Position numbers and translations under genes: made by a program
Notes under the pieces: model-generated
Seen by the model: the letters and a program-made list of their open reading frames with translations, nothing else
What the model was told of the DNA's origin: nothing
The model's database searches: none
From: an uncultured Calditrichaceae bacterium
GTDB lineage: Bacteria; Calditrichota; Calditrichia; RBG-13-44-9; J075
Direction of reading: 5' to 3'
Length of the DNA stretch: 42,669 nucleotides
Assembly (NCBI GenBank): GCA_964416895.1
Contig: CAYQGB010000003.1
Span: 1 to 42,669 of the forward strand
Part shown: piece by piece, positions 3,034-26,809 of the stretch
Layout of the letters: the number at the start of each line of letters is the position of its first letter
How positions within the stretch are numbered: position 1 is the stretch's first letter

Positions 3034-5121
3034 TCACAGAGCTTCCTCCACCAGCTCGATGATGTCTTTGACCACAATTTTTCCCTCATTGCCGGAAGTT
3101 TTCACGGCATCGGAATACATGGTGTAGTCTTTGGGGCAGGCCACCACGAAGTAATCCACCGCTCCCAGCGCCAGGGCCTCCTTGATGCGCTGCTCGCTGG
3201 GGCGTTCGGTGAGGCCGGAATCATCCATCCAGATGCGCCCGCCGCCGGCGCCGCAGCAGAAAGTATTGGTGCCGCAGCGAGGCATCTCTTTGAAGTTCAC
3301 CCCCAGGGCCCGCAGAATCTTCCGCGGCGCCTCCGTCTCCCGATTGTAGCGCCCCAGATAGCAGGGATCGTGATACGTAACGGTGTAATTCAGTTTTTTG
3401 GAGAAGCTCAGTTTGCCCTCGTCGATAAGGCGGGCCAGCAACCCGGTGTAATGATAGATGGTAAAACTTCCCCCGAATTCAGGATATTCGTTTTTGATGG
3501 TATTGAAGGAATGGGGATCGGTGGTGAAGATTTTGTCGAATTTGGCCTTTTGCAGCACGGCCAGATTGTCCTCCACCAGCATTTCAAACAGCCCTTCTTC
3601 CCCGATGCGTCGCACATCGTTCCCGGCGTTTTTTTCTCCCTCGTAGAGAATGCCGAAATCCACCCCGATGTTATGCATCACCCGGGCCACGGTGCGGGAA
3701 AGCTCCTGAATGCGGGTATCATACGAAGCGTAGTCGCCCACAAACCACAGATACTCGGCCTGCTCCTTGCGCACATCTTTGATCTTGAACTCCAGCCCCT
3801 GGGTCCATTTGCCCCGGGCGCGAGGGGGTTGCCCGAAGGAGTTGCCGTAATCGCCGATGTTCATCAGGGCATCCTGCAGGGAGTCTTCCATGTTGCCCTC
3901 ATCCACCAGCCGCCGCCGCATCTGCACGATGTGGGTGAGATGCTCGATGCCCACCGGACAGTTTTCCACGCAGGCCATGCAGGTGGTGCAGGACCACAGG
4001 GTTTCCGGTTTGATCACGTCTCCGGCGATCTTCACTCCCTCCAGCTTTCCTTCCGGCCATTTGCCGTTGACGGTCTGGCGGAACCATTCCGGGCTGCCGA
4101 TGACCGAGTCGGCGTAGGTGCGCAGATCCAGAATCAGATCCCGGGGGGAGAGGGGAGCGCCGGAAGCCCGCGCCGGGCAGGCGTAATGACACCGCCCGCA
4201 TTTGGTGCAGGCATCCAGATCCAGCAGTTCCTTCCAGGTAAAATCCAGGATGCCTCCGTAGCCCATCCCCTTTTTCATCTCCTCTTCGGAGACTCTGGGA
4301 AGCACCCGGGCGGCGTTATCCTCATGGAACATCAGGTTGGCGAAGTCGATGAGCATGTGCATGGCTTTGGAGTAGGGGATATAGGCGATAAAGGCCAGCA
4401 CGATGATGGCGTGAAACCACCAGGTATAGGCGTGCAGCGTTTCTCCCGTGGAAGCACTGATGGTGGAGGCGATAGCCCACCCCACCGGCGACCACACCTC
4501 AAACGAGGGCATGCCGTCGGCAGCGATGCGAAAGCCTTCGATGAGGAAGCCGGTTACCCCGATGATGAACAGCAGCCACAGGAAAATCCGGTCATCGGTG
4601 ACATAACCGGCGCGGTTGTATTCCTCTGCCTTGCGATCCACCCGGGTGTAATCCAGTTGAGGCGGATGCATGGCGCCCCGGCGAAACATCATCATGGCCA
4701 GGCCGATCAGGAAGAGCACCCCGAAAATGTCCAGGATTACCGAGAACCACAGGTAAAAGGTGCCCTGCAACAGTCGATAGCCGAAGAAAAGCTCCAGGAA
4801 GTCGTGATCGAAGGCCACGATGCAGGTGCCGATGAACAGCACCACAAATCCCCAGAAGATCATCCAGTGGGCCGCGCCGGCGTAGGCGTCCCGTTTGAAC
4901 ACGGTGGCGTTGGTGAGCATGATCCGAAAGGCCTTCAGGAAACGCTGCCCCAAGTGGTTAAATCTCCCTGCGGGGCGGCCTTTGCGGTACTTCTGGATGC
5001 GGCGATAGAAGCCGTGCAGGAATACGCCGATAGCGCTGAAGCCCACCACATAGAAGATGAGCTGCATGAGGAAGGGAAAGTTGCGAAAGACCTCACGAGT
5101 GGGAGTGGTCACATCGGGCAT
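3034..5121 (-). CDS. emo: membrane-bound Fe-S oxidoreductase: NarI/DsrM-like TM domain fused to an HdrC/HdrB(CCG)-like domain; EtfAB:quinone oxidoreductase (Emo)-like
   Basis: Start set at MPDVTTPTREV (ATG 5121-5119, GGAGG upstream). About 5 hydrophobic helices with His residues, then CTKCGRCHYACP and CTTCMACVENCP ferredoxin motifs and CCG-type motifs (FCCGAGGG). Lies directly downstream of etfBA. The longer 845-aa ORF only reads through etfA-tail duplications. Confidence 0.85.
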   Translation of the reverse strand: MPDVTTPTREVFRNFPFLMQLIFYVVGFSAIGVFLHGFYRRIQKYRKGRPAGRFNHLGQRFLKAFRIMLTNATVFKRDAYAGAAHWMIFWGFVVLFIGTCIVAFDHDFLELFFGYRLLQGTFYLWFSVILDIFGVLFLIGLAMMMFRRGAMHPPQLDYTRVDRKAEEYNRAGYVTDDRIFLWLLFIIGVTGFLIEGFRIAADGMPSFEVWSPVGWAIASTISASTGETLHAYTWWFHAIIVLAFIAYIPYSKAMHMLIDFANLMFHEDNAARVLPRVSEEEMKKGMGYGGILDFTWKELLDLDACTKCGRCHYACPARASGAPLSPRDLILDLRTYADSVIGSPEWFRQTVNGKWPEGKLEGVKIAGDVIKPETLWSCTTCMACVENCPVGIEHLTHIVQMRRRLVDEGNMEDSLQDALMNIGDYGNSFGQPPRARGKWTQGLEFKIKDVRKEQAEYLWFVGDYASYDTRIQELSRTVARVMHNIGVDFGILYEGEKNAGNDVRRIGEEGLFEMLVEDNLAVLQKAKFDKIFTTDPHSFNTIKNEYPEFGGSFTIYHYTGLLARLIDEGKLSFSKKLNYTVTYHDPCYLGRYNRETEAPRKILRALGVNFKEMPRCGTNTFCCGAGGGRIWMDDSGLTERPSEQRIKEALALGAVDYFVVACPKDYTMYSDAVKTSGNEGKIVVKDIIELVEEAL

Positions 5122-5168
5122 AGACAATCTCCTCCGTTTGGTTCTAAGGAGCAGGCGTTCCCCCGTAG

Positions 5169-5339
5169 GACAGGCATCTTGCCTGTCATGACTTTTTCGG
5201 TCGGCGCCGGGATCAGGTGTTTTTAAGGACAGGCTGGAAGCCTGTCCTACCTTTTCGATCGGCGCCGGGATCAGTTCGAAGAGATCCACGGTGGTGCCGT
5301 AGTGGGCATCTTCGATGACAGGCTGAAAGCCTGTCCTAC
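5169..5339. repeat. three GACAGGC-N5-GCCTGTC hairpins interleaved with two degenerate copies of the etfA 3' end
   Basis: Hairpins at 5169-5187, 5226-5248 and 5317-5335. Segment 5249-5316 repeats the true etfA end (5343-5413); within it, gccgggatcagNtcgaagagatccacggtggtgccgtagtgggcat differs at one position. 5188-5225 is a shorter, more diverged copy. Confidence 0.85.
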
Positions 5340-6302
5340 CTACTTGAGTTTTTCGGTCAGGGCCGGGATCAGGTCGAAGAGATCCACGGTGGTGCCGTAG
5401 TGGGCATAGTCGAAGATGGGCGCGTTGGGATCGGTGTTCACGGCGATGATCAGTTCCGAATCTTTCATCCCCTCGATGTGTTCCGGCGCCCCGCTGATCC
5501 CCAGGGCCAGATAGAGTTTGGGTTTGACCTTCACCCCGGATTTGCCCACCTGACGGGTTTTGGGCAACCACTTGTTATCCACGATGGGGCGGGAGGCAGA
5601 GACCGCACCGCCCAGCACCTGAGCCAGTTCCTCGGCCATGGGGAGATTCTCTTCGCTTTGAATTCCCCGACCCACGCTGACCAGAATTTCCTGCTGGGTG
5701 ATGTCCACGTCGCCGGCTTCCGGCTCGATCAGTTGCTTGAACTGCACCCGGGGGGAAGCCACGCTTTCCGGGGCGGCGATTTCTTCTACTGCCGGGGAGC
5801 CTTCTTTGCGCCCGGCATCGGCGGGAAAGGAGCCGGCAATTACCGAGATCACGCAGCTATCCCCCTCCACCACCGATTCGGTGTTGATCTTACCCCCGTA
5901 CAGCTGGCTGATGACGGAGAGCCGGCCGTCTTTTACGGCCACATCCACCCCGTAGGAGACCAGAGGCAACTCCAGCGCCGCCGACACCCCCGAGGCCAAA
6001 TCCATGCCCATGGAGGTGTACGGAACCAGCGTCACCGCCGGCTGATTGGCTTTGACCACTTCGGTAAGGGCGGCGCAGTGAGCGTCGGGGTTAAAATTGG
6101 CCAGGTTGGGGTGATCCACGTACAGCACCTTATCCGCCGCGCCCAGTTGACCGGCCAGTTCCTTCACCCCGCTGCCCAGCAGCACGGCTGCCAGTTGACC
6201 GCCCAGGGCATCGGCCAGTTCCCGGCCTTTGCCTAACAATTCAAAGGTCACCTCTTCGATGTTTCCGTTCTGCTGTTCTACAACCACCAGCACGTTGCTC
6301 AT
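5340..6302 (-). CDS. etfA: electron transfer flavoprotein alpha subunit
   Basis: Typical EtfA C-terminal FAD domain (PKLYLALGISGAPEHIEGMKDSELIIAVNTDPNAPIF). 4-nt overlap with etfB. Confidence 0.93.
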   Translation of the reverse strand: MSNVLVVVEQQNGNIEEVTFELLGKGRELADALGGQLAAVLLGSGVKELAGQLGAADKVLYVDHPNLANFNPDAHCAALTEVVKANQPAVTLVPYTSMGMDLASGVSAALELPLVSYGVDVAVKDGRLSVISQLYGGKINTESVVEGDSCVISVIAGSFPADAGRKEGSPAVEEIAAPESVASPRVQFKQLIEPEAGDVDITQQEILVSVGRGIQSEENLPMAEELAQVLGGAVSASRPIVDNKWLPKTRQVGKSGVKVKPKLYLALGISGAPEHIEGMKDSELIIAVNTDPNAPIFDYAHYGTTVDLFDLIPALTEKLK

Positions 6303-7066
6303 TTCTTGATCCCCCTTTCTTTCAGGATGTTCACGATCTTTTCGGCCACTTCTTCGGCGGAGCCTTCCAGCATTTCCGCCCCGGCGCCGGTTTCCGGCTT
6401 GAACATGCGTTCCACGGCGGAGCCGACCGGAACGGCGGCGTCACCGGCGGCGACCTCTTCCAGTTCGGTGCTGCGCATGGCCTGACGCACCCGGCTGACC
6501 GGAGCGTATCGGGGCGTTTGTCGCGCCGCCTGAATGCCCAGCACTGCGGGCAACCGGACCTCGAATTCGGCCATCAGGCCGCCGGCGTACTCCTTCTGCA
6601 CCGTGGCGGCGCCGTCGCTCAGGCTTACGCCGGTCACCACGCTCACGTGGGGCACATCCAGATAGTGCGCTAACAGCACGGCCACCTGACCATCCCGCTC
6701 ATCCACTGCCTGCACCCCGGTGAGGATGAGATCGTATTCCACCGATTGCAGGGCATTGGCGAAGGCTTTGGCGGCCACATGGGCGGGCACCCCGGGGCCG
6801 AAATCGCCGGTGACTTTGATCAACCGGTCGGCACCTTTGGCCGCTGCGGTGTAGAGGGCTTTGTCGATGTCCTCGCTCTCCAGGGCCACGGCGGTGACGG
6901 TAGCGCCGCTCTCCTCCTTCAGCAGAAGGGCCTCTTCCAGAGCGTGATCATCAAACTCGTTGATCTTGTACTTCAGCCAGTCCCGATTGAGATCTTTGCC
7001 GGACTCATCCAGCTCCAGCTCTTCCACCAGATCCGGCACCTGCCGTAATAGAACCACGATATTCAT
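6299..7066 (-). CDS. etfB: electron transfer flavoprotein beta subunit
   Basis: MNIVVLLRQVPDLVEELELD...YKINEFDDHALEEALLLKE is classic EtfB/FixA. Confidence 0.93.
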   Translation of the reverse strand: MNIVVLLRQVPDLVEELELDESGKDLNRDWLKYKINEFDDHALEEALLLKEESGATVTAVALESEDIDKALYTAAAKGADRLIKVTGDFGPGVPAHVAAKAFANALQSVEYDLILTGVQAVDERDGQVAVLLAHYLDVPHVSVVTGVSLSDGAATVQKEYAGGLMAEFEVRLPAVLGIQAARQTPRYAPVSRVRQAMRSTELEEVAAGDAAVPVGSAVERMFKPETGAGAEMLEGSAEEVAEKIVNILKERGIKK

Positions 7067-7144
7067 GGTTTCCGTACCTCCGTATGATTGGTTGTGTTAT
7101 TTGCCAGATGATTCTCTGTCTGGTGATTAAGTCTCCGGGGAGAT

Positions 7145-7262
7145 GCGTATTCGTATTGCGTAATGCGTATTTTGTATTGGATTTCCCATCACGAGTTTCC
7201 CGTTCCATATTCCCAAATCCCCATTCCGCATTCCCCGGTTTTCCGCTACATTTCCCATTCCA
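7145..7262. repeat. 7-nt-periodic repeat tracts (CGTATTG/CGTAATG, then TTCCCNN)
   Basis: gcgtatt cgtattg cgtaatg cgtattt tgtattg followed by atttccc atcacga gtttccc gttccat attccca aatcccc attccgc attcccc. The tract runs into the last codons of the radical SAM gene. Confidence 0.6.
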
Positions 7263-8346
7263 CCATACGCCCGGCCATCGTTCGCCGATGAATTTCCGGT
7301 AGCAGGCGAATCCCCTCTTCAAAATCCACGATGCGGTTGATCAGGTAAAACAGATACATGGTGGTCAGCCAGTTGGTGAATTCCTGCTTGCTTCCCAGAT
7401 GTTTACGCAGGTTGAGCATGACCCAGGAAAAGTGCTCCCAGGTGTCAAAGCAGCTGTCACAATCCCGGTCGATGCCGGTGCAGCAACGCCGGGTGGTGCA
7501 GAAATCGGCGTTGTAGGCCCGGAAGTGGGGATTGTAGGGTTTGCCGTTGGCGATGCGCTCCCGATTGACCGGGTGATCGGCGGTGATGCTGGTGCATACG
7601 TCATATCCCCACCGCTCGTCGTAGAGCCAGCCGGTGGAGACCACTTCGGCGAGGTAGCGGGTCATCAGAATCCGGTCGGGGTAGCGCTCGATCATGCGCT
7701 CGATTTCCTCCCGCACCCGGTCAAAACCCTGCCGGTGATCCAGCTCCCCGCCCATCTGCTCCACATCCCCATAAAAGTTGAACAGCACCCGATTGCCGTT
7801 TTCCACGCACCGGGTAACCACCCGTTCGATCTCGTGGGTGTTGCCGGGGGTGACGGTGTAATACCAGAAAGCGCGGGGATCGTCCCGATAGTTGTTCAGG
7901 GCCCGGGCGAACACATCTACCCGCCCGCTTCCCCGAAGCTGTCGATCGGTTTCATGATCACCCCATACCGAGATGCCGATGGGCATGTTCTCGAACCCTT
8001 CGTAAGGGATACGCCGCAGGCCGTTGGTGGCCACGTTCATACGGAAATTGCGATAGATCTTGTGCAGTCGATCCAGCGCCAGGGTGGGTTCGCCCCCCAC
8101 CACGGTGACGAAATTGGTGCCCCGGGCCTTCTCCCGTTCGATGAAGGCCTCAAAAGCGGCCTCGTCCTTCCCCGGGAGGCGATGGCGATCCATGTTTTCC
8201 GCGAAGTAGTAGCATCCCACGCACCGAAGATTGCATACGTGGGTGAGATCCACGGAAATGGATCGCAACGGCCCCGCCTGCCGAATTTCGGTGTAGAGGC
8301 GGTTTAAAAACGGATCCTGCAGATATGTCCTTAGACTGTTTGCCAT
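7246..8346 (-). CDS. radical SAM protein of unknown function, Cys-rich C-terminal part
   Basis: CNLRCVGCYY (CxxxCxxC) and VVGGEPTL. Additional cluster-like cysteines CTTRRCCTGIDRDCDSC. No resemblance to the two LipS-like proteins outside the core. Confidence 0.85.
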   Translation of the reverse strand: MANSLRTYLQDPFLNRLYTEIRQAGPLRSISVDLTHVCNLRCVGCYYFAENMDRHRLPGKDEAAFEAFIEREKARGTNFVTVVGGEPTLALDRLHKIYRNFRMNVATNGLRRIPYEGFENMPIGISVWGDHETDRQLRGSGRVDVFARALNNYRDDPRAFWYYTVTPGNTHEIERVVTRCVENGNRVLFNFYGDVEQMGGELDHRQGFDRVREEIERMIERYPDRILMTRYLAEVVSTGWLYDERWGYDVCTSITADHPVNRERIANGKPYNPHFRAYNADFCTTRRCCTGIDRDCDSCFDTWEHFSWVMLNLRKHLGSKQEFTNWLTTMYLFYLINRIVDFEEGIRLLPEIHRRTMAGRMVEWEM

Positions 8347-8366
8347 AGTCGGATTCCGGGAAAATT

Positions 8367-8432
8367 GCGTATTGCGTAGTTCGTATTGCGTAGAAAAGGA
8401 TGAACTTACGCAATACGCAATACGAAATACGC
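8367..8432. repeat. long imperfect inverted repeat built from TACGCAA-type heptamers
   Basis: gcgtattgcgtagttcgtattgcgta (8367-8392) pairs with tacgcaatacgcaatacgaaatacgc (8407-8432) at 23 of 26 positions, with a 14-nt loop. Abuts the stop codon of the upstream gene. Confidence 0.85.
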
Positions 8433-9548
8433 CTACTCTCCGATAAACTCCTCTAATTGCAATTGCTCTACAATTTCCTTCTGATCTTCATCGTTGGGCA
8501 CGAAGGGATAATCCCGGTACGGCTCGCTGGGGCGATAGCTGCCGTAAGGGCGGGTGCAACCGGGTTCGCCGTTTTCGCCGGGACACCCGTTGGTCATAAA
8601 CGGCAACCCGGTGCGCACCACCTGCATGACCTGAGACAGGGGCGCTTTCAGGCGGATCAGGTTTCCGGCCTCGTCGAATTCCAGGCGATCCCGGGGCAAA
8701 TCGTAATCTTCCAGCAAACTCTTGACCAGTTGAATCCGCCGCCAGCGGGTAATGTGGGGCTTGGGATGTTCGCCCATCCGGGAATCCGGTTCGGGATTGA
8801 AACAAAACAGGTAAGCGAAGATCTGCCGACTCTTGAGGTAGTAGAACAGGTCAATGAGATCTTTATCGCTTTCCCCCAGACCCACCAGGGTGTGGCAGTT
8901 CACTTTCCAGGGGCCGAAGATTTCCCGGGACCAGTGGATGACGTCCCAGTAGTTCTGCCATTTCAATCCCCCCTGGGGCACATTGGTGCGGCGCTGAACG
9001 AAAACCTCCTCGGTGACCGCATCCAGTCCCACGCCGATCATATCCACCCCCAGCGCTTTGAAGGTCTTCAGCCGGTCGTAATTCAGCGTGGGGGGCGCCA
9101 CCAGGATGGACAGAGGCGTTTTCACTTTTTTCCGAATTCTCTCCGTGATGTCTGCCGTATCCCGATAGGCGTGCCCGTGGGTGACCATGGAGATGCACAG
9201 CCGGGTCAGCCGATCCTGATATTCCGCCATGCGCTCCACCAGCAGATCGGTTTCCACCAGGGGCCAGTCCACCCGGATGAAGGATTTCTCCTCGTATCGC
9301 CCCGGGCGGGTGCGGGCCAGGCCGCAGTAGGCGCAATCGGAAAAGCAGCCCTGCTCGTAGTTCAGCAGGATGTTGATCCCGCCGAACTCGAACCGGCGGG
9401 CGAATCGCCCGGAGATCAACCGCAGGGCGATAGCGCTGGCGCTGCTGATGCGCACATAATCCGGGCTGATTTGAAGCGGCTCCTGAACGCACGGTTCCGC
9501 GAGGGGGATGTTGCCGGAGATGAGTCGGTCAGGGTTTATGCGAGACAT
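8433..9548 (-). CDS. lipS1: radical SAM protein, BioB/LipA-like fold; LipS1-like lipoyl synthase component (which LipS it is remains tentative)
   Basis: CFSDCAYCGLAR radical SAM motif and GLGESDKDL as in the BioB/ThiH/HydE class. Extra Cys pairs near the C-terminus (NGCPGENGEPGC). Flanks the LplA-type ligase, as in sHdr-associated lipoylation loci as I recall them. Confidence 0.7.
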   Translation of the reverse strand: MSRINPDRLISGNIPLAEPCVQEPLQISPDYVRISSASAIALRLISGRFARRFEFGGINILLNYEQGCFSDCAYCGLARTRPGRYEEKSFIRVDWPLVETDLLVERMAEYQDRLTRLCISMVTHGHAYRDTADITERIRKKVKTPLSILVAPPTLNYDRLKTFKALGVDMIGVGLDAVTEEVFVQRRTNVPQGGLKWQNYWDVIHWSREIFGPWKVNCHTLVGLGESDKDLIDLFYYLKSRQIFAYLFCFNPEPDSRMGEHPKPHITRWRRIQLVKSLLEDYDLPRDRLEFDEAGNLIRLKAPLSQVMQVVRTGLPFMTNGCPGENGEPGCTRPYGSYRPSEPYRDYPFVPNDEDQKEIVEQLQLEEFIGE

Positions 9549-9579
9549 AGAACGCTGTTCCTCCTGTGGGATTTACACC

Positions 9580-10719
9580 TCATGCGGTTTGGGATACCTT
9601 CGGGTAGTAACAGGAGCCCCGGTAGGTAAAATGGTGCTCCATACGGGCGCTGCGGGCGGCTTTCCAGATGGCTTCGGCGATGGCCCCGGCAGGAAGGGGA
9701 GCGGCAGCTTGATTCTGAGCCGGAAATGCCTTCAGGGCGTTTTCGACCTCGCTCTCGATGGAGGCTCGATCCAGCGGGCTCCATTTCAGCCGGGATTCGA
9801 TGTGGCGAAAGGCCGCCTCATGGTCCAGGAAATCCCCGGTGATGAGCACGCTTTTGATGGTTTCGCCTTTGAGGGCGATATACACCCGGAGCAGTCCGGC
9901 GGGGGTTTTCTTCAGGCTCATGCCGGTCATATCTGCCTGGGGGGAATTCTGAAACAGCCATTCTTCCCGGCGATATTTCTCCCGGGCCAGTCGCTCGATG
10001 GCCGCGCGTTCTTCGGTAGAGATGGGGGTGGGCTGGAGTGTCATCTGAAAAAGCCGTTCAAAACTCCCGGCGATGCGGGTGCGAATCTCACCCACACTAA
10101 CCTTGCGCCCCAGTTCCCGGGAAACGGTGGTCAGCCGCTGGCGCACGCTGCGGATCATCACCCGATCGGAATATTTTTCCCGGGGAATGTTCAGCACTTT
10201 TAGCATCAGAGGAATATCCAGATCCACCAGCAAACTGGCGTGAAACAGCAGGGCGCCATGGGGATCGTAGTACACCCCCAGCCCGGCGATTTTGCGCCCG
10301 TTTACTTCCAGATCGTTTTTGGGGCGAAAGCGAGCTTCAATGCCCAGTTCCCGCAGGGCCTGAATCAGCGGCCCGGAAAAGCGCCGATAGGCTTCCGCCG
10401 GATGGGCCAGCGCCGGATCCGGCGCGGTGCTCAGGGTCAGGCACACGCCCAGCTGATCTTCCCCCATGAGGATGGCGCCGCCGCCGGTGGGTCGCCGCCC
10501 GATCTGCACCCCCAGTCGCCGACAGTTTTCCAGATGCAACTCCGCTTCCATATTCTGGAATCGCCCCACCAGAGCACAATGGGAACGGTAGGTGTACAGC
10601 CGCAGGGTCGGCTCCGGGCGAGGATGCTGCACCGGATAGTAGCGCATCAGAAATTCGTCGGTTGCCAGCCCGTAGTCGGCGGAGACCTGATCTTCTTCGA
10701 TGTAACGCCAGGGAACCAT
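9580..10719 (-). CDS. lipoate-protein ligase, LplA family, fused catalytic plus accessory domains (sLpl(AB)-like)
   Basis: RRPTGGGAILMGEDQLGVCL and NDLEVNGRKIAGLG (the catalytic Lys motif of BPL/LPL enzymes). At 379 aa it is longer than the catalytic domain alone. Confidence 0.85.
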   Translation of the reverse strand: MVPWRYIEEDQVSADYGLATDEFLMRYYPVQHPRPEPTLRLYTYRSHCALVGRFQNMEAELHLENCRRLGVQIGRRPTGGGAILMGEDQLGVCLTLSTAPDPALAHPAEAYRRFSGPLIQALRELGIEARFRPKNDLEVNGRKIAGLGVYYDPHGALLFHASLLVDLDIPLMLKVLNIPREKYSDRVMIRSVRQRLTTVSRELGRKVSVGEIRTRIAGSFERLFQMTLQPTPISTEERAAIERLAREKYRREEWLFQNSPQADMTGMSLKKTPAGLLRVYIALKGETIKSVLITGDFLDHEAAFRHIESRLKWSPLDRASIESEVENALKAFPAQNQAAAPLPAGAIAEAIWKAARSARMEHHFTYRGSCYYPKVSQTA

Positions 10720-10846
10720 GAGGGTATCAGGTTATATTAGTTGGACATTTTATGAGTTTTGAATTTGTTTCTGAATCAAATGAGTAACATTCCATGAACC
10801 ACGGTTAAGCGCACACATACCCGGTTCAAAGCACCGGGAACGTATG

Positions 10847-10887: not shown

Positions 10888-10949
10888 ACTTCTCAAACTG
10901 TCACGTGATAGTACACCCTCGATACCCCAATATCCTGATACTCCGCTTC

Positions 10950-19022: not shown

Positions 19023-19100
19023 TGCTTACCTCCGATTTTTGAATAGTGATGTAAATTGGCGCTTTTCGTTGGTCTAAAAAGTTTCCAGGTCTTTTGCCAT

Positions 19101-19635: not shown

Positions 19636-20674
19636 CTACCCAATCCGGAATGGTGACTCCGGGCGTTTGAATGCCTTCCTCCAGATAAAACTTTTGAATC
19701 CGACGCAACAGGGTGGAGCGGTTAGCCTTTACCCCCCGGAGGGTCTCTTCCAATTGCCGAATTTTCTCCTGGGGATAAAAGGTAAAATCTCCGGAAATAA
19801 GGATGTCGTCAATATGGTGGTCTCGCAGGCGCAGGGTAATGCGGATCAGGCCCCCGGGGGTTTTGACCTGAGTTTCCCCCACCCATACACCGCCGTGAAT
19901 TTTGACCGCCGGTCGGGCGTATCCCCCTTTGGAGAACAACCACTCCTCTGTGGCAAACTTCCGTTCGGTGTCGGCAATGGCCTGTTCTTCGGCCCCGGTC
20001 AGCTCTCCCACTTCCACCCGTTCGCCGAAAATCTTCTCGCATTCTTCCACATACAGCCGGATGACTTCTTCCCGTTGTGGAAGCGTGTTCAGTTCCTTCT
20101 TCATGGTGGTCATGTAATCCCGAAGGCCGGAATACACTTTGTCGCGAAACTTCTCATCCGGCACCCGCAGGATTCTGGCCATCAGATCGATGTTGAAGTC
20201 GAACATGAAATTGCCCACCAGCACCTCGGCCTGACCGATTCGGGCGGCGCCCAGACCGGCAATTTTACGCCCGGCCACCTGGATGTCGTTGATGGGGCGG
20301 AAGTAAGCCTCGATCCCCAGCCGCTTGTAGGTCTGAATAATGGGGAGGGCATGGAGGCGGAACCGTTCATCCACCCGCATGGGCAGTGAGGAAGGCGAAA
20401 ACACCCACTGGGTAAACAGTTGATCCTGATCCAGATATACCGCTCCCCCGCCGACTTCCCGGCGAACGATGGGCAAATCATGGGCCCGGCAAAACTCCAC
20501 ATCCACCTCTTTGGTGACCTCCTGGTGAAATCCAATGCAGATGTACGGAGCCGAGGGGGTAACCAGCAGGATGGTGTTGGGGCTTTGAGAATGAAAGGCC
20601 CGCGCCACGCCGTGATATACCGCCTGGGAACGTAGCGGCGGCACCGTGCCCATGTGGATCAGGCGAATGGCCAT
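19595..20674 (-). CDS. second LplA-family lipoate-protein ligase paralog
   Basis: VRREVGGGAVYLDQDQL and NDIQVAGRKIAGLGAARIG match the same motifs as the 9580-10719 protein. Confidence 0.85.
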   Translation of the reverse strand: MAIRLIHMGTVPPLRSQAVYHGVARAFHSQSPNTILLVTPSAPYICIGFHQEVTKEVDVEFCRAHDLPIVRREVGGGAVYLDQDQLFTQWVFSPSSLPMRVDERFRLHALPIIQTYKRLGIEAYFRPINDIQVAGRKIAGLGAARIGQAEVLVGNFMFDFNIDLMARILRVPDEKFRDKVYSGLRDYMTTMKKELNTLPQREEVIRLYVEECEKIFGERVEVGELTGAEEQAIADTERKFATEEWLFSKGGYARPAVKIHGGVWVGETQVKTPGGLIRITLRLRDHHIDDILISGDFTFYPQEKIRQLEETLRGVKANRSTLLRRIQKFYLEEGIQTPGVTIPDWVDAIATLSEKIAQS

Positions 20675-20714
20675 CTTTTCTGCTCCGTGCCCTCTTCCTT
20701 CAATTTTGTTCAGG

Positions 20715-20749
20715 CAAAAAAAGCCCTCCTGCCCCCTCCGTGGGAGGGG
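20715..20749 (-). terminator. weak terminator-like hairpin between the dsrE-like gene and ligase 2
   Basis: CCCCTCC-gtg-GGAGGGG (20733-20749). On the minus strand a T7 run follows, but only after 10 intervening nt. Confidence 0.25.
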
Positions 20750-20871
20750 TTTTCCCGGATAAGACCCCGGGGAAAATCTCCTCAGATGGTCGGCGTCGTT
20801 ACGACGCGTTCAGGATTGAAAACCGATGGATTCGCAATTCGGCAACCTTCTCTCCACCAGGAGATGGGCAT

Positions 20872-21402
20872 CTATATAAACAGCGACACATCTGCATCGG
20901 CGGCGTATTCCAGGAAGGTGGCCGCTCCGCCGATTTCACAGCCGTCTACAAAATCCTCTTTCTTGAAGCCGAATACATCCATGGTCATCTGGCAGCCGAT
21001 GAGACGCACGTCCTCCATTTCCAGACACATCTCCCGCAGTTCTTCGATGGTGGCCACCCCCTTCTTCTGGAAGGTCTTTTTCATCAGGCTGGTGGCCACG
21101 GATTCAAATCCGGGGAGATTGCTCATCAGCAGATTGGGGATGGGGAGGCTGACTTTCTGTAACGCTTCCGGGCCGAAAGGCAGCTTCATGGGCATGGCCG
21201 GATTTCCCACCGGAGAAACGGCGGCATCCAGTTTCTTTTTCAGTAAGGGAAGCCCATAAAAGGTGAAGAAAATGGCCACTTCCCAGCCCATGGCCCCGGC
21301 AGCAGTGGCGAGGATAAAGGGCGGGTACGCCCAGTCCAGGGTGCCCTTTGAGGAGATAAGCGCCAGACGACGCTTTCCGTTTTTCCCATTGTTCTGTGCC
21401 AT
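20872..21402 (-). CDS. DsrE/DsrF-like (peroxiredoxin-like annotation class) sulfur-relay protein, 176 aa, DsrE3-like
   Basis: LALISSKGTLDWAYPPFILATAAGAMGWEVAIFFTFYG ... IGCQMTMD ... GGAATFLE. This long DsrE-type protein is usually found next to tusA. Confidence 0.8.
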   Translation of the reverse strand: MAQNNGKNGKRRLALISSKGTLDWAYPPFILATAAGAMGWEVAIFFTFYGLPLLKKKLDAAVSPVGNPAMPMKLPFGPEALQKVSLPIPNLLMSNLPGFESVATSLMKKTFQKKGVATIEELREMCLEMEDVRLIGCQMTMDVFGFKKEDFVDGCEIGGAATFLEYAADADVSLFI

Positions 21403-21427
21403 GCGGTGATCTCCTTATGTATGGCGG

Positions 21428-21667
21428 TTAATGGGTTTTTTTGATATGGAACCGATACTTCCCCTCTTCCTCCTGCGCCAGCAGCAGCTCATGCCCTGTC
21501 TGTCGTGCCCACGCCTCCATATCAGGAATCGAACCCGGATCGGTGGCGATCATCTCCAGCACCTGCCCCACTTCCAATTCCTTCATGGCCTTGTTGGTCT
21601 TGACCACCGGCATGGGGCAGAGCAAACCGGAGCAATCCAGGGTCTGATCGACGGTGTAATCGGCCAT
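21428..21667 (-). CDS. tusA: TusA-family sulfur carrier
   Basis: LDCSGLLCPMPVVKTNKAMKEL contains the canonical CPxP active-site motif. Confidence 0.92.
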   Translation of the reverse strand: MADYTVDQTLDCSGLLCPMPVVKTNKAMKELEVGQVLEMIATDPGSIPDMEAWARQTGHELLLAQEEEGKYRFHIKKTH

Positions 21668-21683
21668 ACGATGCCTCCTGAGC

Positions 21684-21914
21684 TTATTTTTGGATGAAGA
21701 AACGGGTAAAATCTTCCCGTGCGTAGATGTCCAGCAGTTTGTATCCGGTCAGCCGACTCCAGGCGGCAATATCCAGATGGGCCGCGGGATCGTCGGAGAG
21801 CAGTTCCAGCACCTCACCTTTCCGAAGGGGCGCCAGGGCCGCCGGCAATTTCAAAATGGAAACAAATACATCCATTCCACGACAATCCAGGCATTTGCTT
21901 ACCACGATGGTCAT
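21684..21914 (-). CDS. TusA-like protein lacking the CPxP active-site cysteine
   Basis: LDCRGMDVFVSILKLPAAL aligns to LDCSGLLCPMPVVKTNKAM of the neighbour. The active-site Cys-Pro is replaced by Val-Phe. The rest of the fold pattern (EVLELLSDDPAAHLDIAAW) is kept. Confidence 0.75.
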   Translation of the reverse strand: MTIVVSKCLDCRGMDVFVSILKLPAALAPLRKGEVLELLSDDPAAHLDIAAWSRLTGYKLLDIYAREDFTRFFIQK

Positions 21915-21948
21915 TCACAAAATCCTTTCTCATCGGATGGTGATGTAG

Positions 21949-21964
21949 CGCAAAAGGCATACCA
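21949..21964 (-). promoter_or_regulatory. sigma-54 (-24/-12) promoter candidate for the tusA-like/tusA/dsrE operon
   Basis: The minus strand reads TGGTATG-CCTT-TTGCG against consensus TGGCACG-N4-TTGCW, with correct GG/GC spacing. The -12 element lies about 35 nt upstream of the ATG at 21914, with a GAAAGGA RBS in between. Two sigma-54 activators are encoded in the window. Confidence 0.55.
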
Positions 21965-22155
21965 AAAGGGAGCAAAGGAAGGAGCAAATGAGAAATTTTA
22001 TCCGCCCCCGTGGTTCCGGTGTGTATGCGCTTGGCCGTGCTAACGGAATGTTGACCCTATCCTCAATGTTTGCAAAAACCTTTTGTTCCCATCCCGAAGC
22101 GTTGGGACCAGAAACGAGCGGTGAATGAAGTGGGGGAGATTATCCAATACCTTTC

Positions 22156-22340
22156 GTAACTATTCAGGTACCCACAGAGAAGGTGCTTAGAGGCAATACC
22201 GAAGGGCTTTTCTGCGATTTCTCCCTCACCCCCGGCCCCTCCCCGGCGGGAGAGGGGAGTTTTATTCCGCCGGAGCGGAATGAGGGGAAAATGACAAGAC
22301 AAAAAACAGGCAGCACTCTGGAAAAGACCTGAATAGTTAC
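22156..22340. mobile_element. MITE-like element with 14-bp terminal inverted repeats
   Basis: gtaactattcaggt (22156-22169) and acctgaatagttac (22327-22340) are perfect reverse complements. The interior holds hairpins CCCCTC-cccggcggg-GAGGGG and ATTCCGC-cgga-GCGGAAT. No coding capacity. Confidence 0.5.
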
Positions 22341-22420
22341 TACCGTTTATGGTGGTTTTGCTTCAGGTGATTCTATGGCATTCTTGCCATATCTCCGGAA
22401 TCAATACCATAATTCCCCAC

Positions 22421-22756
22421 CTACCCAAAAGCAATGGAAGCGGTGGATTGATAAGTTCCTCCCTGGTTGTCCCGAAAGATCATTTTCAGCGGGGCCTGTT
22501 TGGTGGCTTTCAAATAGAAGCTGAACAGAGGATTCTGGCTGACGCCGGCCCCGATTTCAAAGTGGGCGATCTTGTCCTCGCCGTAGTATACTTCTACATC
22601 TTCGATGTAATGTGCCGGAATGCGTTCCCCGGTGCGGCGATTCTTTCGCCTTCCCGTTTCCATGGGGTGGATGATGATGCACTTCACTTCCACAAGGTCA
22701 TTGGGATGAATCGACCGGGGAAGTTTGATCTTGCTTTTGCCGATTTTAATGCCCAT
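22421..22756 (-). CDS. soxZ: SoxZ sulfur-compound-binding protein
   Basis: VEVKCIIIHPMETGRRKNRRTGERIPAHYIEDVEVYYG...SQNPLFSF is the SoxZ pattern. Immediately follows soxY. Confidence 0.88.
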   Translation of the reverse strand: MGIKIGKSKIKLPRSIHPNDLVEVKCIIIHPMETGRRKNRRTGERIPAHYIEDVEVYYGEDKIAHFEIGAGVSQNPLFSFYLKATKQAPLKMIFRDNQGGTYQSTASIAFG

Positions 22757-22827: not shown

Positions 22828-23307
22828 TCATCCGCATCCACTCAGGGTTACCCGCACCGAACGCTGCCCGTGGAACAGTTCTCCGGTGTTGGTTTCGGCG
22901 ATGGCGTGCACCGGACTGGTTTCGGCCATCTTGATCCGGGTGCTGATGTAGGCCTTACCGTTGGCCGGGGTGAGGTGAAACTTTCCGATCAGCGGAACGG
23001 GGTTCTTCTGAGAAAGGATGTAAATGGTCTGGATGTATTGATCCGCCTCCATGGGAAAATCCACTTCCACGGCCACGGGAACGGTGGCGCCGTTTTCGGC
23101 CAATTCCGGAGCGGAGACGCTCACCCGTTCGCGCTGCATGGCCCGGTCTCCGAACAACCGCTGCATGGCCGCCTCGAAGCTTTCCTCGATGTAATGGCTT
23201 TCCCGGGAAGGGGATTGCTGCGCTTTCAGCCCGGAAGGGAAAAACATTATGCCCAGCCCGATCTTTCCCAGAAATATGACAAATTCCCGACGGGACAACC
23301 ACTTCAT
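22828..23307 (-). CDS. soxY: SoxY sulfur carrier protein
   Basis: Tat-like SRREF signal, AENGATVPVAV and a C-terminal ...VTLSGCG (swinging-arm Cys). Confidence 0.88.
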   Translation of the reverse strand: MKWLSRREFVIFLGKIGLGIMFFPSGLKAQQSPSRESHYIEESFEAAMQRLFGDRAMQRERVSVSAPELAENGATVPVAVEVDFPMEADQYIQTIYILSQKNPVPLIGKFHLTPANGKAYISTRIKMAETSPVHAIAETNTGELFHGQRSVRVTLSGCG

Positions 23308-23341: not shown

Positions 23342-24076
23342 TTACAGGTCCAGTATCGCCTGGGAATACTCCTCCATGGGAACTACCACCGTGGTTCCGG
23401 TAACCGGGGCCCGGGCGGCCTGAGTATCCCCAAACTGTTTTCGCAGTTCTTTGCGAAACTCTTTGAAAAAGCGGTGGAACAGTTCCGGCCCCAGCACTCC
23501 CACCGCCCACAGGGTATCGTCTCCCCGATGTTCCAGAACGATGGCCGCCAGGGGCTGTTGGGCTTCCCCGGCAAGGTTTTTGGCCCCCACCGCCGGATCG
23601 TACACCGAGTTATGGGCTGCACACACGATAACCCCGCCTCGTGAAAAAGCGGTGGTGTTGCCGGAACGGGGCACATACCGGAGAAAGCTGACATCCTTCC
23701 GAATGTAGGAGAGTTGATGGGCGCAGATGCCCGAATAAGCCACCACCGTGCCCTCCTTGCCGGCGCCGTTTCGCCAGAGATACTCCTCCCCATCTTCGGA
23801 GCGCAGCCGTACCTCCCCCACCGCCGGTTCCGGTAAATTGATCAGGATGCAGGGAGTGGAAATATAGGGATAGTTGAACACGTAATTCTGCTCTTTCTTC
23901 AGTTTTCCGGCGCGAATGGGATTGCCCTGCGCATCTACCAGTTGCACGATCTCATACGGATGAAACATGGGGCCTTCCCCCACCGGGGTATACAGCACCT
24001 TCCGAACACAGGAAGGGCTGATCGCCACCGCCGTTAATCCGGCGCCAACCAGCTTGAGGAAATTCCGTCGGTTCAT
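23342..24076 (-). CDS. Tat-exported Rieske-type [2Fe-2S] protein
   Basis: MNRRNFLKLVGAG Tat signal. CAH ... CAAHNSVYD resembles the Rieske boxes CxH and CxxHGSxFD, without the disulfide cysteines and with a longer spacer than classic Rieske proteins. Confidence 0.7.
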   Translation of the reverse strand: MNRRNFLKLVGAGLTAVAISPSCVRKVLYTPVGEGPMFHPYEIVQLVDAQGNPIRAGKLKKEQNYVFNYPYISTPCILINLPEPAVGEVRLRSEDGEEYLWRNGAGKEGTVVAYSGICAHQLSYIRKDVSFLRYVPRSGNTTAFSRGGVIVCAAHNSVYDPAVGAKNLAGEAQQPLAAIVLEHRGDDTLWAVGVLGPELFHRFFKEFRKELRKQFGDTQAARAPVTGTTVVVPMEEYSQAILDL

Positions 24077-24182: not shown

Positions 24183-25532
24183 TCAGGTCAGCATGTCCCG
24201 ATACAGCCCTTTGGCCCATTCCAGCAATGCCTGACCGGCCTGAGTGCCCTTGTCCGTGTCCCAGAGTTCCATGGTGCTGGCGTTGGCGAACTGGAATTGC
24301 CCCTTTTCTTTGTTGTAGGCGTATCCGGCCTGCACTTTAATCGCCCGCAGCGGCTCTCCGGCAACCGCTGAATAGCATATCGTGGTGGGCGATTCCCAAG
24401 GGGTTTCCTTCCCGGCGATGCGGTTGGCGATCACTTTGGCCACGAACTTGCCTTCCGAGTTGGCCGTGTTGCCGCTCTTGCTGAAGGCCATGGGGCGGGC
24501 ATCTCCGGCGATAAAGACGTGCTCATCGTCCACCGCCTGATAGGTGAACACGTCGATGTTGGCCTCGCCTTTGTTGATCCCGTCTTTAGCCAGCCCCACC
24601 TGCTCCACCAGTTTGGCGCCTCGCACCCGGGGATAGATGGCCGCATCGGCAAATTGGATCTGGTCGCCCAGTTCCGTTTCCACCACTTTCTTATCCAGAT
24701 CGATCTTGACGATGGGGCTGCTGGGATAGTATTCCACGTAATCCTTGTACAGCTCATCAAACGCCGAGTGGAAGCCGTCTTTCTTGATGGTGATGTCCGG
24801 GTTTTCATCCAGCAGAACCACCTTTCCGGGAATCCCTTCCCGCTTGAAATAGTCGGCGATCATGCAGGTGCGCTCATACGGCGCCGGCAGACAGCGGTAG
24901 TTCCCGCCGGGGCAGGTGAGCAGGAAGATCCCTTTCTCGAAGGCTTCCACCTTTTCCTTCAGGTAAAGGTGTTCCCCCATGGGAATAAATCCACCGGGAT
25001 ATTCCTGACGCAGGCGGGCCTCGGTTTCGGTGTCATCGCCCACCAGGCGGGAATAGTCATAGTCGATCCCCGGCGCCAGCACCAGATAGTCGTAGTTCAC
25101 CGTCCCTTCGGTGGTGTGCACGATCCGTTTGGCCCGATCCACATCCACCACCCAGGCGTTGAGATAGTAGTACTTGTTGTTCACCGCCGGGCGATGGAAG
25201 CTGTGCATCAGAAAATCCAGGTTCAGCAACCCGGAAACCCACAGATTGCTCACCGGGCTGGACATAAATCCGGAGCGCTTGTCAATCAGAACCACGTCGA
25301 TGCCGGCGTTGTACTTCTTGAGATACTTGGCGATGGTCAGCCCGGACCACCCCGCACCGACAATGACCACCCGGGGGCCGTTGGGTTTGGGAATCGGCGC
25401 CGCCGTGGCGGGGATCAAATTCAGATATTTGCCCGACAGTCCGGTGGCTGCCTGCCCTCGACCCCAGCTCAATAGCGCACCCAGCCCTCCCACTCCGGTG
25501 AGCTTCAGAAAATCCCGTCGCTTGAGGCTCAT
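24183..25532 (-). CDS. Tat-exported FAD-dependent sulfide dehydrogenase flavoprotein-like (FccB/SoxF-like)
   Basis: MSLKRRDFLKLTG Tat signal. VVIVGAGWSGLTIAKYLK dinucleotide fold. Length and overall pattern match the flavocytochrome c sulfide dehydrogenase flavoprotein family. Confidence 0.8.
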   Translation of the reverse strand: MSLKRRDFLKLTGVGGLGALLSWGRGQAATGLSGKYLNLIPATAAPIPKPNGPRVVIVGAGWSGLTIAKYLKKYNAGIDVVLIDKRSGFMSSPVSNLWVSGLLNLDFLMHSFHRPAVNNKYYYLNAWVVDVDRAKRIVHTTEGTVNYDYLVLAPGIDYDYSRLVGDDTETEARLRQEYPGGFIPMGEHLYLKEKVEAFEKGIFLLTCPGGNYRCLPAPYERTCMIADYFKREGIPGKVVLLDENPDITIKKDGFHSAFDELYKDYVEYYPSSPIVKIDLDKKVVETELGDQIQFADAAIYPRVRGAKLVEQVGLAKDGINKGEANIDVFTYQAVDDEHVFIAGDARPMAFSKSGNTANSEGKFVAKVIANRIAGKETPWESPTTICYSAVAGEPLRAIKVQAGYAYNKEKGQFQFANASTMELWDTDKGTQAGQALLEWAKGLYRDMLT

Positions 25533-25615
25533 AACGTACCTCCATCGGTTAAATGTGAAACGGCGTAACAGTTGAAAAACCCCTCTCCGCTTCCTGGCCT
25601 GATCCTGTAAGGTGA

Positions 25616-26809
25616 TTACATCAGGGTAAAGATGCGTTTAACCTCATTCCAGGTGATGAGCAGACTGAACAGCCCTAAGCCTCCCAGAGTGATCAGCAGG
25701 GCGGCCTTCCAGCCGACCAGGTCGGGGAAAAACACCGGCTCGCCCAGCTTTGCCATCAACTCGTTTTGCATCAGCCAGTGATTGAACAGCGCTCCCACCA
25801 CGGCAAAGGCCAGCAGCGCCACCCCCAACCGGAGGTGCCCTTCGCCCAATCGCCACAGGGAACCGGAAGCGCACCCGCCGGTCAAAGACATGCCGAACCC
25901 GAAGATTACCCCTCCCAGGAGGCCTCCCATCCAGAAGGTGCCCCGAACCCCGTCCAGCAGACGATCCTCCAGCGTTTCGATGGAAGCCCACTTGATCACC
26001 GAAAACCCGATCACCCCGATCATCAATCCCAGGATGACCCCCCGGGTCATGCTGCCTTCGCCGGTGAGAAAGGGTTCCCGGAAGGCCTTCACAAAGCAGA
26101 ACCGGGAGCGTTGATTGACCAGGCCCAGGAAAACCCCGAACAGCAGAAAGACCCCCGCTTTGGGATAATGTAGCCGGTCGTACAAAAAGCTAAGCCCCAG
26201 AGCGAGCAGCGCCAGAATCCCCCCGACGACCGGCTGCCAGCTACGGGGAGAGGAGGGATTGCCCGCCGGGGCGGCTGCCGGAGAAGCGCCGATCCAGCGC
26301 AAAGGCAGATGTTCGGTCTCCCACAGCAGGTAGCGGATTCCCAGGTAGGCGCCCACCGCCAGGCCTCCCATCATGGCCACCCCGCCCAGGGAGAGGGCGC
26401 TGACGGCGCTGAAAAATCCCCCGATGTTGCAGCCCAGAGAAAGATTGGCGCCGATGCCCATAAAAGCGCCTCCCACCACCGCTTTGAACATCTCCCAGGG
26501 AGGCGAGGAACGAAAACCGAACTGCCGGGAAAATAAGGCGGCAATCGCGGCGCCCAGAACCAGGCTCAGGTTCAGAATCGAATTGGGATAGAGCAGCAGG
26601 GGAAAGATGTCCCGCTCCTCCCCGTAAAATCCCACCCAATTCAGTAGATGTTGCCCCCAGTTCAACACCCCTAAAAAAGTTGTCCAGGGTTCCGCATAAG
26701 CGAACAGGAGCACGTTGGTCATGCCCAGGAGCAAACCACCGATCCAGGGCGCCCAGGGATTATTCCCAAAAACTTTCGCATACCGGTCGGAGAACACTTG
26801 ACGAAGCAT
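25616..26809 (-). CDS. yeeE: YeeE/YedE family sulfur-compound (thiosulfate) transporter
   Basis: Polytopic membrane protein with two repeated halves, each carrying the GGCxxG-type motif (LSLGCNIGG, LTGGCASGS). Confidence 0.85.
   Translation of the reverse strand: MLRQVFSDRYAKVFGNNPWAPWIGGLLLGMTNVLLFAYAEPWTTFLGVLNWGQHLLNWVGFYGEERDIFPLLLYPNSILNLSLVLGAAIAALFSRQFGFRSSPPWEMFKAVVGGAFMGIGANLSLGCNIGGFFSAVSALSLGGVAMMGGLAVGAYLGIRYLLWETEHLPLRWIGASPAAAPAGNPSSPRSWQPVVGGILALLALGLSFLYDRLHYPKAGVFLLFGVFLGLVNQRSRFCFVKAFREPFLTGEGSMTRGVILGLMIGVIGFSVIKWASIETLEDRLLDGVRGTFWMGGLLGGVIFGFGMSLTGGCASGSLWRLGEGHLRLGVALLAFAVVGALFNHWLMQNELMAKLGEPVFFPDLVGWKAALLITLGGLGLFSLLITWNEVKRIFTLM

Follow-up and report, generated by a model that had tools for sequence, protein, structure and literature searches.

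A type II sHdr-LbpA locus adjacent to a YeeE, FccB-like, Rieske and SoxYZ gene unit in an uncultured Calditrichaceae bacterium

We examined a 42.7 kb stretch of DNA (contig CAYQGB010000003.1 of assembly GCA_964416895.1; hereafter the window) from an uncultured Calditrichaceae bacterium, and in particular its sulfur oxidation genes at 3034-26809, which an earlier note made from the sequence had joined into a single supercluster. We found two units instead, separated by 506 bp in which a repeat element and a conserved sigma-54-type promoter lie. The downstream unit (unit 2, 21914 to 3034, about 19 kb, from a tusA-like gene to emo) is, judging by its gene content and order, a complete type II shdr locus matching the published definition, namely shdrC1B1AH, a fused shdrB3 and etfAB in one cluster, usually with emo (PMC11094781). 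Its core is another member of a known, bioinformatically defined system. The upstream unit (unit 1, 26809 to 22421) is a periplasmic module that encodes a YeeE-family transporter, an FccB-like flavoprotein, a Rieske protein and SoxYZ. We hold the identity of the two units with high confidence. We favour, with moderate confidence, the reading that they are neighbouring transcription units serving a single sulfur-oxidising lifestyle, in which unit 1 would feed unit 2, while the functional coupling of the two, taken on its own, stands at about an even chance.

The G+C content of the window varied between 52 and 65%. It carries 35 substantial genes at 457-37606, all on the minus strand, so that co-direction is not particular to the cluster. 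All 25 genes listed in the earlier note at 3034-26809 were present on the minus strand with the expected domains, as called by Pfam and NCBIfam, and the gene identities, positions and overlapping stops and starts that it had reported were borne out. A GGAGG-type ribosome-binding site precedes most genes. The Rfam and tRNA scans of the window returned nothing.

The type II shdr unit

The sHdrA protein (353 amino acids (aa); 14915-15976) had Hyphomicrobium sHdrA (6TJR) as its closest solved relative, with a full-length match (E = 2.5e-91, residues 5-349), whereas methanogen HdrA aligned at about 1e-63 and in two pieces. It is devoid of the ferredoxin and MvhD-binding domains, and its sequence is identical to that of a protein in an NCBI 'Calditrichaeota bacterium' MAG. 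An sHdrA rather than a methanogen HdrA was also what the earlier note had predicted at this position, in a distinction that it had set as a refuting test. Directly upstream of shdrA we detected shdrC1 (17214-17957; Fer4 dicluster, best NCBIfam match HdrC) and shdrB1 (15969-17168; CCG domain, best NCBIfam match HdrB), and there is a true overlap of 8 nt between shdrB1 and shdrA. Downstream, shdrH (13740-14564) overlaps shdrB3 (12488-13753) by 14 nt. We found no Pfam or NCBIfam family match for sHdrH, which was assigned by its position and its conservation (40–58% identity in relatives), and its start is probably MAQIMD, near 14489. The 421-aa sHdrB3 is encoded by a single open reading frame (ORF) and fuses an HdrC-like with an HdrB-like part: a Fer4 dicluster at residues 57-114 is followed by two CCG stretches.

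The genes for electron exit, etfBA and emo, lie in the same cluster as the shdr genes. EtfB (6299-7066) and EtfA (5340-6302) were recognised with Pfam, and their genes overlap by 4 nt. The emo gene (3034-5121) encodes an EMO-type membrane Fe-S oxidoreductase of 695 aa with a QmoC/NarI-like membrane domain, two [4Fe-4S] motifs and CCG domains. An alternative emo ORF of 845 aa, starting at 5571, was rejected as too long, and the real start is MPDVTT at 5121. The last ~72 nt of etfA (5350-5421) are repeated in the etfA-emo spacer at 5252-5323 (88% identity) and partly at 5189-5218; because of this repeat, the emo ORF seems to reach 5571, with an EtfA-like C-terminal peptide in another frame. We also observed close paralogy between sHdrB3 and the soluble portion of EMO (40% identity over 396 aa, E = 1e-100), with DNA stretches of 74–81% identity remaining between the two genes.

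For comparison with relatives, 80 loci were anchored on sHdrA (66–91% identity), with a flank of at most 10 kb per side where the contig allowed, and the window proteins were mapped onto them by tblastn; many of these loci are truncated, so that the counts given here are lower bounds. The order in unit 2 is tusA-like, tusA, dsrE2, ligase 1, a small ORF, dsrE3A, lbpA1, shdrC1, shdrB1, shdrA, shdrH, shdrB3, lbpA2, lipS1, ligase 2, lipS2, a third radical SAM gene (rSAM3), etfB, etfA and, where present, emo. It was recovered in full, gene for gene, in the Calditrichota loci L019, L055 and L002, as far as their contigs and flanks reach. The order was nearly identical in a KSB1 locus (L009), with no match for tusA-like. 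Most Bacteroidota show the order but lack the TusA paralogue and rSAM3, and in Planctomycetota the lipoate block sits upstream instead. The core order recurs, far beyond chance, across at least six phyla and dozens of loci, and unit 2 is conserved as a block. In particular, shdrB1 was found in 79 of the 80 loci, shdrH in 77 (between shdrA and shdrB3), shdrB3 in 76, shdrC1 in 73, etfBA in 53 and emo in 42. The lbpA1 gene was present in 66 loci, directly upstream of shdrC1, followed by tusA with its active Cys (59 loci), lbpA2 (55), ligase 1 (50, position kept), lipS1 (49), ligase 2 (46) and lipS2 (42). The small ORF was found in 26 loci, rSAM3 in 11 and the TusA paralogue in 10.

The relay genes open the unit. 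TusA (21428-21667; Pfam TusA 7.3e-27) keeps the active Cys in the motif LLCPMP, and its paralogue, the first gene (21684-21914; Pfam TusA 1.2e-12), has no active-site Cys-Pro; the motif is absent in 10 out of 10 orthologues too. DsrE2 (176 aa; 20872-21402) scored 214.6 against an NCBIfam cut-off of 210. The 126-aa Pfam DsrE protein at 18642-19022 had a single PDB match, DsrE3A of S. solfataricus (3MC3, 6.6e-22), with the Cys kept, and was assigned as a DsrE3A-type sulfurtransferase. These two assignments agree with the published finding that TusA and DsrE3A are the main companions of type II systems (PMC11094781). The small ORF (19282-19635) encodes an acidic protein with no family match in Pfam or NCBIfam; its true start is probably near 19584, and a conserved core of ~85 aa, including one conserved C-terminal Cys, is shared by the 26 loci that have it.

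The lipoate genes comprise two GcvH-fold proteins, two ligases and three radical SAM enzymes. LbpA1 (17983-18468) and LbpA2 (11897-12379) both have the Pfam GCV_H fold and the lipoyl lysine. They both failed the NCBIfam gcvH equivalog (94.1 and 86.1, respectively, with a cut-off of 115.85), and LbpA2 also failed the broader GcvH subfamily model, which LbpA1 passed (133.3 vs 117). The PDB searches returned GcvH entries only for the two proteins, and this does not settle LbpA versus GcvH. Synteny supports the LbpA identity, given that both genes lie beside a ligase and LipS1/LipS2 and that the cluster has no gcvT or gcvP. The first ligase, of LplA/LplB type (19595-20674), combines LplA-B_cat and Lip_prot_lig_C, and the second (9580-10719) is of sLpl(AB) type according to its Pfam and NCBIfam domains. 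The probable lipoyl synthases LipS1 (10950-11954) and LipS2 (8433-9548) were by far the best NCBIfam matches of their proteins, and the overlap of ~54–58 nt between lbpA2 and lipS1 is present in relatives too. A type II sHdr-LbpA system with its own ligase, LipS1 and LipS2 is what the earlier note had recognised here, in agreement with the published definition (PMC11094781; PMC10332631).

The third radical SAM enzyme (7246-8346) has a CX3CX2C motif, a Cys-rich C-terminus and weak SPASM-type matches. Its gene follows LipS2 directly in 10 of the 11 loci where it was found. The family is small, with 51 representatives at E≤1e-30 among 1.84 billion, and its sole solved relative is a marginal match to SkfB (E = 0.0013). 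LipT, the usual companion of LipS1/LipS2 (PMC10332631), was absent from the cluster among the ORFs scanned with Pfam and NCBIfam. A LipT hidden in the relatives without rSAM3 was rejected, as there is no gap above 700 nt after LipS2 at any locus. The closest representative of the rSAM3 family (P0351) is a fusion of 724 aa, and its N-terminal half reads, by sequence, as a docking domain and a thioesterase-like alpha/beta hydrolase (GWSMGG), which hints at an acyl-thioester substrate; it was rejected as a LipS2-rSAM3 fusion, with the N-terminal half being thioesterase-like and not LipS2.

EtfAB and EMO were first described for acyl-CoA respiration in syntrophs, which counts for a reading of the Hdr-like, Etf and EMO proteins as a complex for bifurcation or for electron transfer in general (Flox/Hdr- or Qmo-like, or acyl-CoA/Etf/EMO) with glycine-cleavage H proteins, as do the LbpA1 score on the broad GcvH model and the GcvH entries as best PDB matches of both LbpAs; we regard this as very improbable, for several reasons. 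sHdrA is short, without the ferredoxin and MvhD-binding domains, and matches its Hyphomicrobium counterpart over its full length. TusA, DsrE2 and DsrE3A are constant components of the cluster, neither GcvH-like protein reaches the equivalog cut-off, and genes for GcvT, GcvP or an acyl-CoA dehydrogenase are absent from the cluster. Moreover, the lbpA genes alternate with genes for dedicated ligases and for LipS1/LipS2.

The published type II clusters of Sulfobacillus, Chloroflexota, Actinobacteriota and others show the same core set and order, with the fused sHdrB3 in place of C2B2, etfAB and emo, and likewise TusA and a transferase of DsrE3A type (PMC11094781). They also have LbpA and, dedicated to it, a ligase and LipS1/LipS2, which the window probably shares. 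Calditrichota are not named in the text of that paper. The window differs by having two ligases, two LbpAs, a Cys-less TusA paralogue, a conserved small ORF and a third radical SAM enzyme where LipT would be, by a sigma-54 regulator context and not an ArsR-type repressor, and by the SoxYZ/FccB/Rieske/YeeE unit next door. The earlier note could match its locus to no characterised one on account of rSAM3, the second ligase and the Cys-less TusA. This did not hold, given that these genes sit at the same positions in related Calditrichota, KSB1 and Planctomycetota; they are conserved in the clade and not unique because relatives have them at the same positions. By this comparison of sequences, this clade of type II loci has the second ligase, rSAM3, the Cys-less TusA and the small ORF as lineage features.

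The periplasmic unit with YeeE, FccB-like, Rieske and SoxYZ genes

The first gene of unit 1 (25616-26809) encodes a YeeE/YedE-family membrane transporter of 397 aa (Pfam Sulf_transp 1.2e-47), with the three channel cysteines conserved in comparison with TsuA (6LEO). It scored below the NCBIfam cut-offs for TsuA and YedE (94 vs 400, 70.8 vs 645) and is not a TsuA equivalog. Its homologues (50–59% identity) recur at the head of sox clusters, and this context suggests a Sox-linked importer. We also found YeeE homologues of 43–45% identity between shdrB3 and etfB in two loci of Rokubacteria/Methylomirabilota (L070 and L076), that is, inside type II clusters; because of these cases, the family is not foreign to type II loci. 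In a published survey, SoxT transporters were completely absent from genomes with type II sHdr (PMC11582611). The window protein is SoxT-like by its gene context.

The FccB-like flavoprotein (24183-25532) has a twin-arginine translocation (TAT) signal, the FCSD_central and FCSD-flav_bind domains and 1FCD_A as its best solved relative (3.7e-38). It resembles flavocytochrome c sulfide dehydrogenase (FCSD; FccAB, 1FCD) in export, fold and the redox pair Cys161 and Cys337, which is kept in the alignment with 1FCD, and differs from it by a Ser in place of the FAD-linking Cys42, by its link to SoxYZ and by its partner. We found no FccA cytochrome among the window ORFs scanned; the neighbouring gene encodes an AioB-type Rieske protein, and not a dihaem cytochrome c.

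The Rieske [2Fe-2S] protein (23342-24076) carries a TAT signal. Its Pfam match is weak, but the ligands C118-x-H and C152-x-x-H are present, and the AlphaFold model (pLDDT 91.3) was matched by Foldseek to AioB, the small subunit of arsenite oxidase (TM-score 0.75–0.80). Based on the model, the two proteins share the Rieske fold and the TAT signal and would be alike in passing electrons to a soluble periplasmic carrier. The window protein differs in its partner, a flavoprotein and not a molybdopterin subunit, in an extra C-terminal helical region of ~50 aa and in overall sequence (~23% identity). Its best relatives, at ≤55% identity, are from Sulfurimonas, Sulfuricurvum, Nitrosophilus and Sulfuriferula.

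The last two genes are soxY (22828-23307) and soxZ (22421-22756). SoxY has a TAT-like signal and the carrier Cys in a C-terminal SGCG, and matched Pfam SoxY (2.4e-37) and NCBIfam SoxY_true (134.7 vs a cut-off of 125). SoxZ matched Pfam SoxZ (6.8e-27) and NCBIfam SoxZ_true (97.7 vs 76).

We then anchored 84 loci on the Rieske gene, 37 of which had room on both sides, and the fccB-like gene adjoined the Rieske gene in 36 out of these 37. In 7 loci soxYZ were also inside the module, in either order. In four loci with annotated flanks, the FccB-Rieske module was found among unrelated genes (transposases, lpxB, clpA-type and others). FccB-Rieske, sometimes with SoxYZ, is by this gene-order evidence an independent module in Sulfurimonas and related sulfur oxidisers, widespread in Campylobacterota. 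The earlier note had counted the Rieske partner among the parts without a match, and this claim did not stand. In Sulfurimonas hydrogeniphila (L082, 8759-9181) and in a metagenome (L094, 8740-9150) the module ends with a secreted protein of ~136–140 aa with a C-terminal CxxCH, probably a small cytochrome c acceptor of the module; no homologue was found in the window.

In the literature, we found no functional description of an FccB-Rieske-SoxYZ enzyme, and the sole precedent is a gene-order note from 2012 (PMC3504083), in which a Sulfurihydrogenibium-like 'large sausage-shaped bacterium' has the order dhsU1-Rieske-dhsU2-soxXYZAB, with FccB-like, Rieske and sox genes side by side as in the window. 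The 2012 cluster differs from the window in its complete soxXYZAB set, its two dehydrogenase genes and its flavocytochrome gene, and DhsU1 keeps the FAD-binding Cys. Linkage to shdr or yeeE was not reported there, and the Rieske protein was noted without functional work.

Promoters, spacers and neighbouring genes

In the spacer between soxZ and the tusA-like gene we identified a putative sigma-54-type -24/-12 promoter, TGGTATGCCTTTTGC (21950-21964, minus strand), 35 nt upstream of the tusA-like start. In 12 related loci the motif TGG[TA]A[CT]-N5-TTGC precedes the first tusA-like gene by 30–160 nt, and a sigma-54 response regulator lies directly upstream of shdr in 7 relatives. This comparative evidence points to sigma-54 control of the shdr unit, with tusA-like as the first gene of the transcription unit. 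Matches to the strict sigma-54 consensus TGGCAC-N5-TTGCW (≤2 mismatches) were no commoner than chance, and the actual motif, TGGTAT/TGGAAC-N5-TTGC, emerged from reading the spacer and comparing relatives. The scan of 2500-22400 for sigma-70 promoters and terminators gave counts at or under the shuffled expectation. An ORF in the same spacer (22063-22302) was rejected as a gene, since it matched no family and coincides with a repeat of the repetitive extragenic palindrome (REP) type.

Upstream of yeeE, two perfect palindromes TGTGCC-N4-GGCACA (27261-27308; 16 nt each, 32 nt apart) lie just past the stop of a response-regulator gene and ~290 nt upstream of a -24/-12-like site (26968-26982), as candidate enhancer-binding sites. 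The palindrome was absent upstream of tusA in the window and in every relative; because of this absence, an enhancer site common to both units is unsupported. The regulatory and redox genes at 27320-32598 (minus strand) encode a cupredoxin, a double PhnD-like binding protein, a histidine kinase and a sigma-54 response regulator. A gap of 13 nt separates the azurin-like cupredoxin gene from the next one, which encodes a 507-aa protein with two PhnD-like domains (30561-32598 for the two); the kinase and the regulator come after it. As a speculation, the cupredoxin (32098-32598, ~5 kb upstream) could be the electron acceptor of the Rieske protein, and the double PhnD-like protein might be a sensor of sulfur oxyanions.

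Directly past emo, and on the same strand, we found a gene for a FadL-family outer-membrane channel (1588-2949; Pfam Toluene_X) and, adjoining it, one for a secreted 370-aa protein without a family match (457-1569). In L005, homologues of the pair (457-2949; 55–64% identity) are inserted into the shdr cluster itself. The two genes may have an accessory role, and the shdr cluster may run past 3034 to 457; lipY has been described as a putative fatty acid transporter (PMC10332631). The sole large gene on the plus strand (37669-41967) encodes a 1432-aa protein with Ser/Thr protein kinase, cyclase-like, AAA/STAND ATPase and TPR domains, and is divergent from a second pair of PAS kinase and sigma-54 regulator.

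Several repeats were observed in the intergenic regions. Heptamer repeats (CACGTTT/CACGCAT) occur at 19234-19300, 30308-30587, 34440-34470 and 37553-37633, with three tandem copies of 89 nt between the binding-protein and histidine kinase genes (30321-30587); an inverted pair precedes the second kinase gene. Hairpin repeats of the form ATTGCGTA...TACGCAAT were found at 8375-8421, 10858-10892, 18508-18575 and 32729-32778, including positions between lipS2 and rSAM3, between lipS1 and the ligase, and upstream of lbpA1; such repeats may stabilise RNA or act in attenuation. The spacer between shdrA and shdrH (14565-14914) contains hairpins of the REP-like kind (GTCACCCTGAGCTTGTCGAAGGGTGAC and GTCATGCTTCGACAGGCTCAGCATGAC), which occur also upstream of yeeE (27100-27200). 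Through these hairpins the shdrA-shdrH spacer is ~350–425 nt long, compared to ~35–90 nt in relatives and ~215 nt in L007. Similar insertions are found in relatives between shdrC1 and shdrB1 (935 nt in L019, ~700 nt in L002).

A possible sulfur route through the two units

In the reading that we favour, the TAT-exported FccB-like flavoprotein and its Rieske partner would oxidise sulfide or polysulfide and pass the electrons to a soluble periplasmic carrier. The resulting sulfane sulfur would be carried on SoxY of SoxYZ, and the Sox-associated YeeE-type channel would bring the sulfur into the cytoplasm. There, TusA, DsrE2 and DsrE3A would relay it to sHdrC1-B1-A-H-B3, acting with lipoylated LbpA, whose lipoyl cofactor would be made by the unit's own two ligases, LipS1, LipS2 and the accessory radical SAM enzyme. 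Electrons would leave through EtfAB and the membrane-bound EMO to menaquinone. Unit 2 would be transcribed from its own sigma-54 promoter, with co-regulation of the units by the neighbouring two-component system. We infer every catalytic step, the hand-off from SoxYZ over YeeE to TusA and the co-regulation from gene content and neighbourhood. At this level, the pathway of import, capture, relay, oxidation and electron exit in one locus that the earlier note had proposed is a reasonable reading.

For the hand-off there is a precedent in H. denitrificans, in which sulfur passes from a truncated Sox system (SoxXA, SoxB, SoxYZ) over SoxT1A, TusA and DsrE3C to a type I sHdr-LbpA (PMC11582611). By analogy, the window would have in common with it sulfane sulfur bound to SoxYZ, import by a YeeE-family protein that has three channel cysteines, the TusA/DsrE relay and sHdr-LbpA. 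The differences are that the window system is of type II and that the FccB-like/Rieske pair lies beside SoxYZ, in the place of SoxXA and SoxB.

Several results weigh against a coupling of the two units, or against parts of the route. No soxY, soxZ or Rieske gene was found in any of the 80 shdr loci, so that the units adjoin only in this window, and neither shdr genes nor yeeE were found beside the Rieske gene in any of the 84 loci. Modules unlinked in related genomes would, by the earlier note, refute its reading, and this applies to yeeE-fccB-Rieske-soxYZ; the block from tusA to emo stays linked. A distant FccB/SQR-like gene (31% identity) was present in one of the 80 shdr loci. The 506-bp gap with its REP-like repeat and sigma-54-type promoter divides the units, and the putative promoter before yeeE has GG, and not GC, at -12. 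No SoxXA, SoxB (5'-nucleotidase/metallophosphatase) or cytochrome c domain was found with Pfam and NCBIfam among the 35 minus-strand genes and the two plus-strand ORFs scanned. Finally, LipS1 and LipS2 stay under their NCBIfam cut-offs (225.5 vs 230 and 189.5 vs 270, respectively).

The alternative that survives best is that the units became neighbours by an accident of rearrangement and are independent. The FccB-like, Rieske and SoxYZ proteins would then be a self-contained periplasmic sulfide dehydrogenase whose electrons reach the respiratory chain through a cupredoxin or cytochrome, YeeE would import thiosulfate or sulfur for other ends, and sHdr would be fed otherwise. The module lies alone between housekeeping genes in other genomes, has what is probably its own small CxxCH cytochrome in Campylobacterota and is beside shdr nowhere else, and the separate promoter, the long spacer and the cupredoxin gene nearby (32098-32598) fit this account as well. 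It is opposed by the role of SoxYZ, which is a carrier and not an end point, with no SoxB or SoxCD in the window to discharge it, and by the YeeE subfamily, which is tied to sox clusters and occurs also inside the type II clusters of L070 and L076. The GC content at third codon positions (GC3) of the module equals that of its neighbours and speaks against a recent arrival; on the same grounds (GC and GC3), a recent horizontal arrival of the sox/fccB/yeeE unit was rejected. On balance we consider independence of the units rather doubtful.

Within the favoured reading of unit 1 feeding unit 2, a bolder version is that the FccB-like/Rieske pair is a new periplasmic sulfide dehydrogenase, with a Rieske protein for the cytochrome, which would load SoxYZ directly, replace SoxXA/SoxB and feed type II sHdr through YeeE and TusA. 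We regard this as unlikely; if true, it would make a complete sulfide-to-sulfite pathway independent of SQR and SoxXAB.

The new elements of the locus are the juxtaposed units, the sigma-54 promoter, the documented spread of FccB-Rieske(-SoxYZ) and the conserved accessory genes. Type II sHdr is known almost only from gene-cluster comparison. The locus suggests a testable entry route, with SoxYZ and a Sox-type YeeE channel beside a type II cluster, which is of note given the survey that reported the absence of SoxT. It also points to a possible mode of regulation, through the conserved upstream sigma-54 promoter and the two-component regulators beside the cluster in several relatives. It further brings out conserved accessory genes, namely the LipS2-tied rSAM3, the Cys-less TusA paralogue and the small Cys-containing protein. 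Finally, the FccB-like/Rieske pair is common in Sulfurimonas and other sulfur oxidisers of vents and sediments, and, once characterised, could join the sulfide-oxidising systems that are used to read metagenomes.

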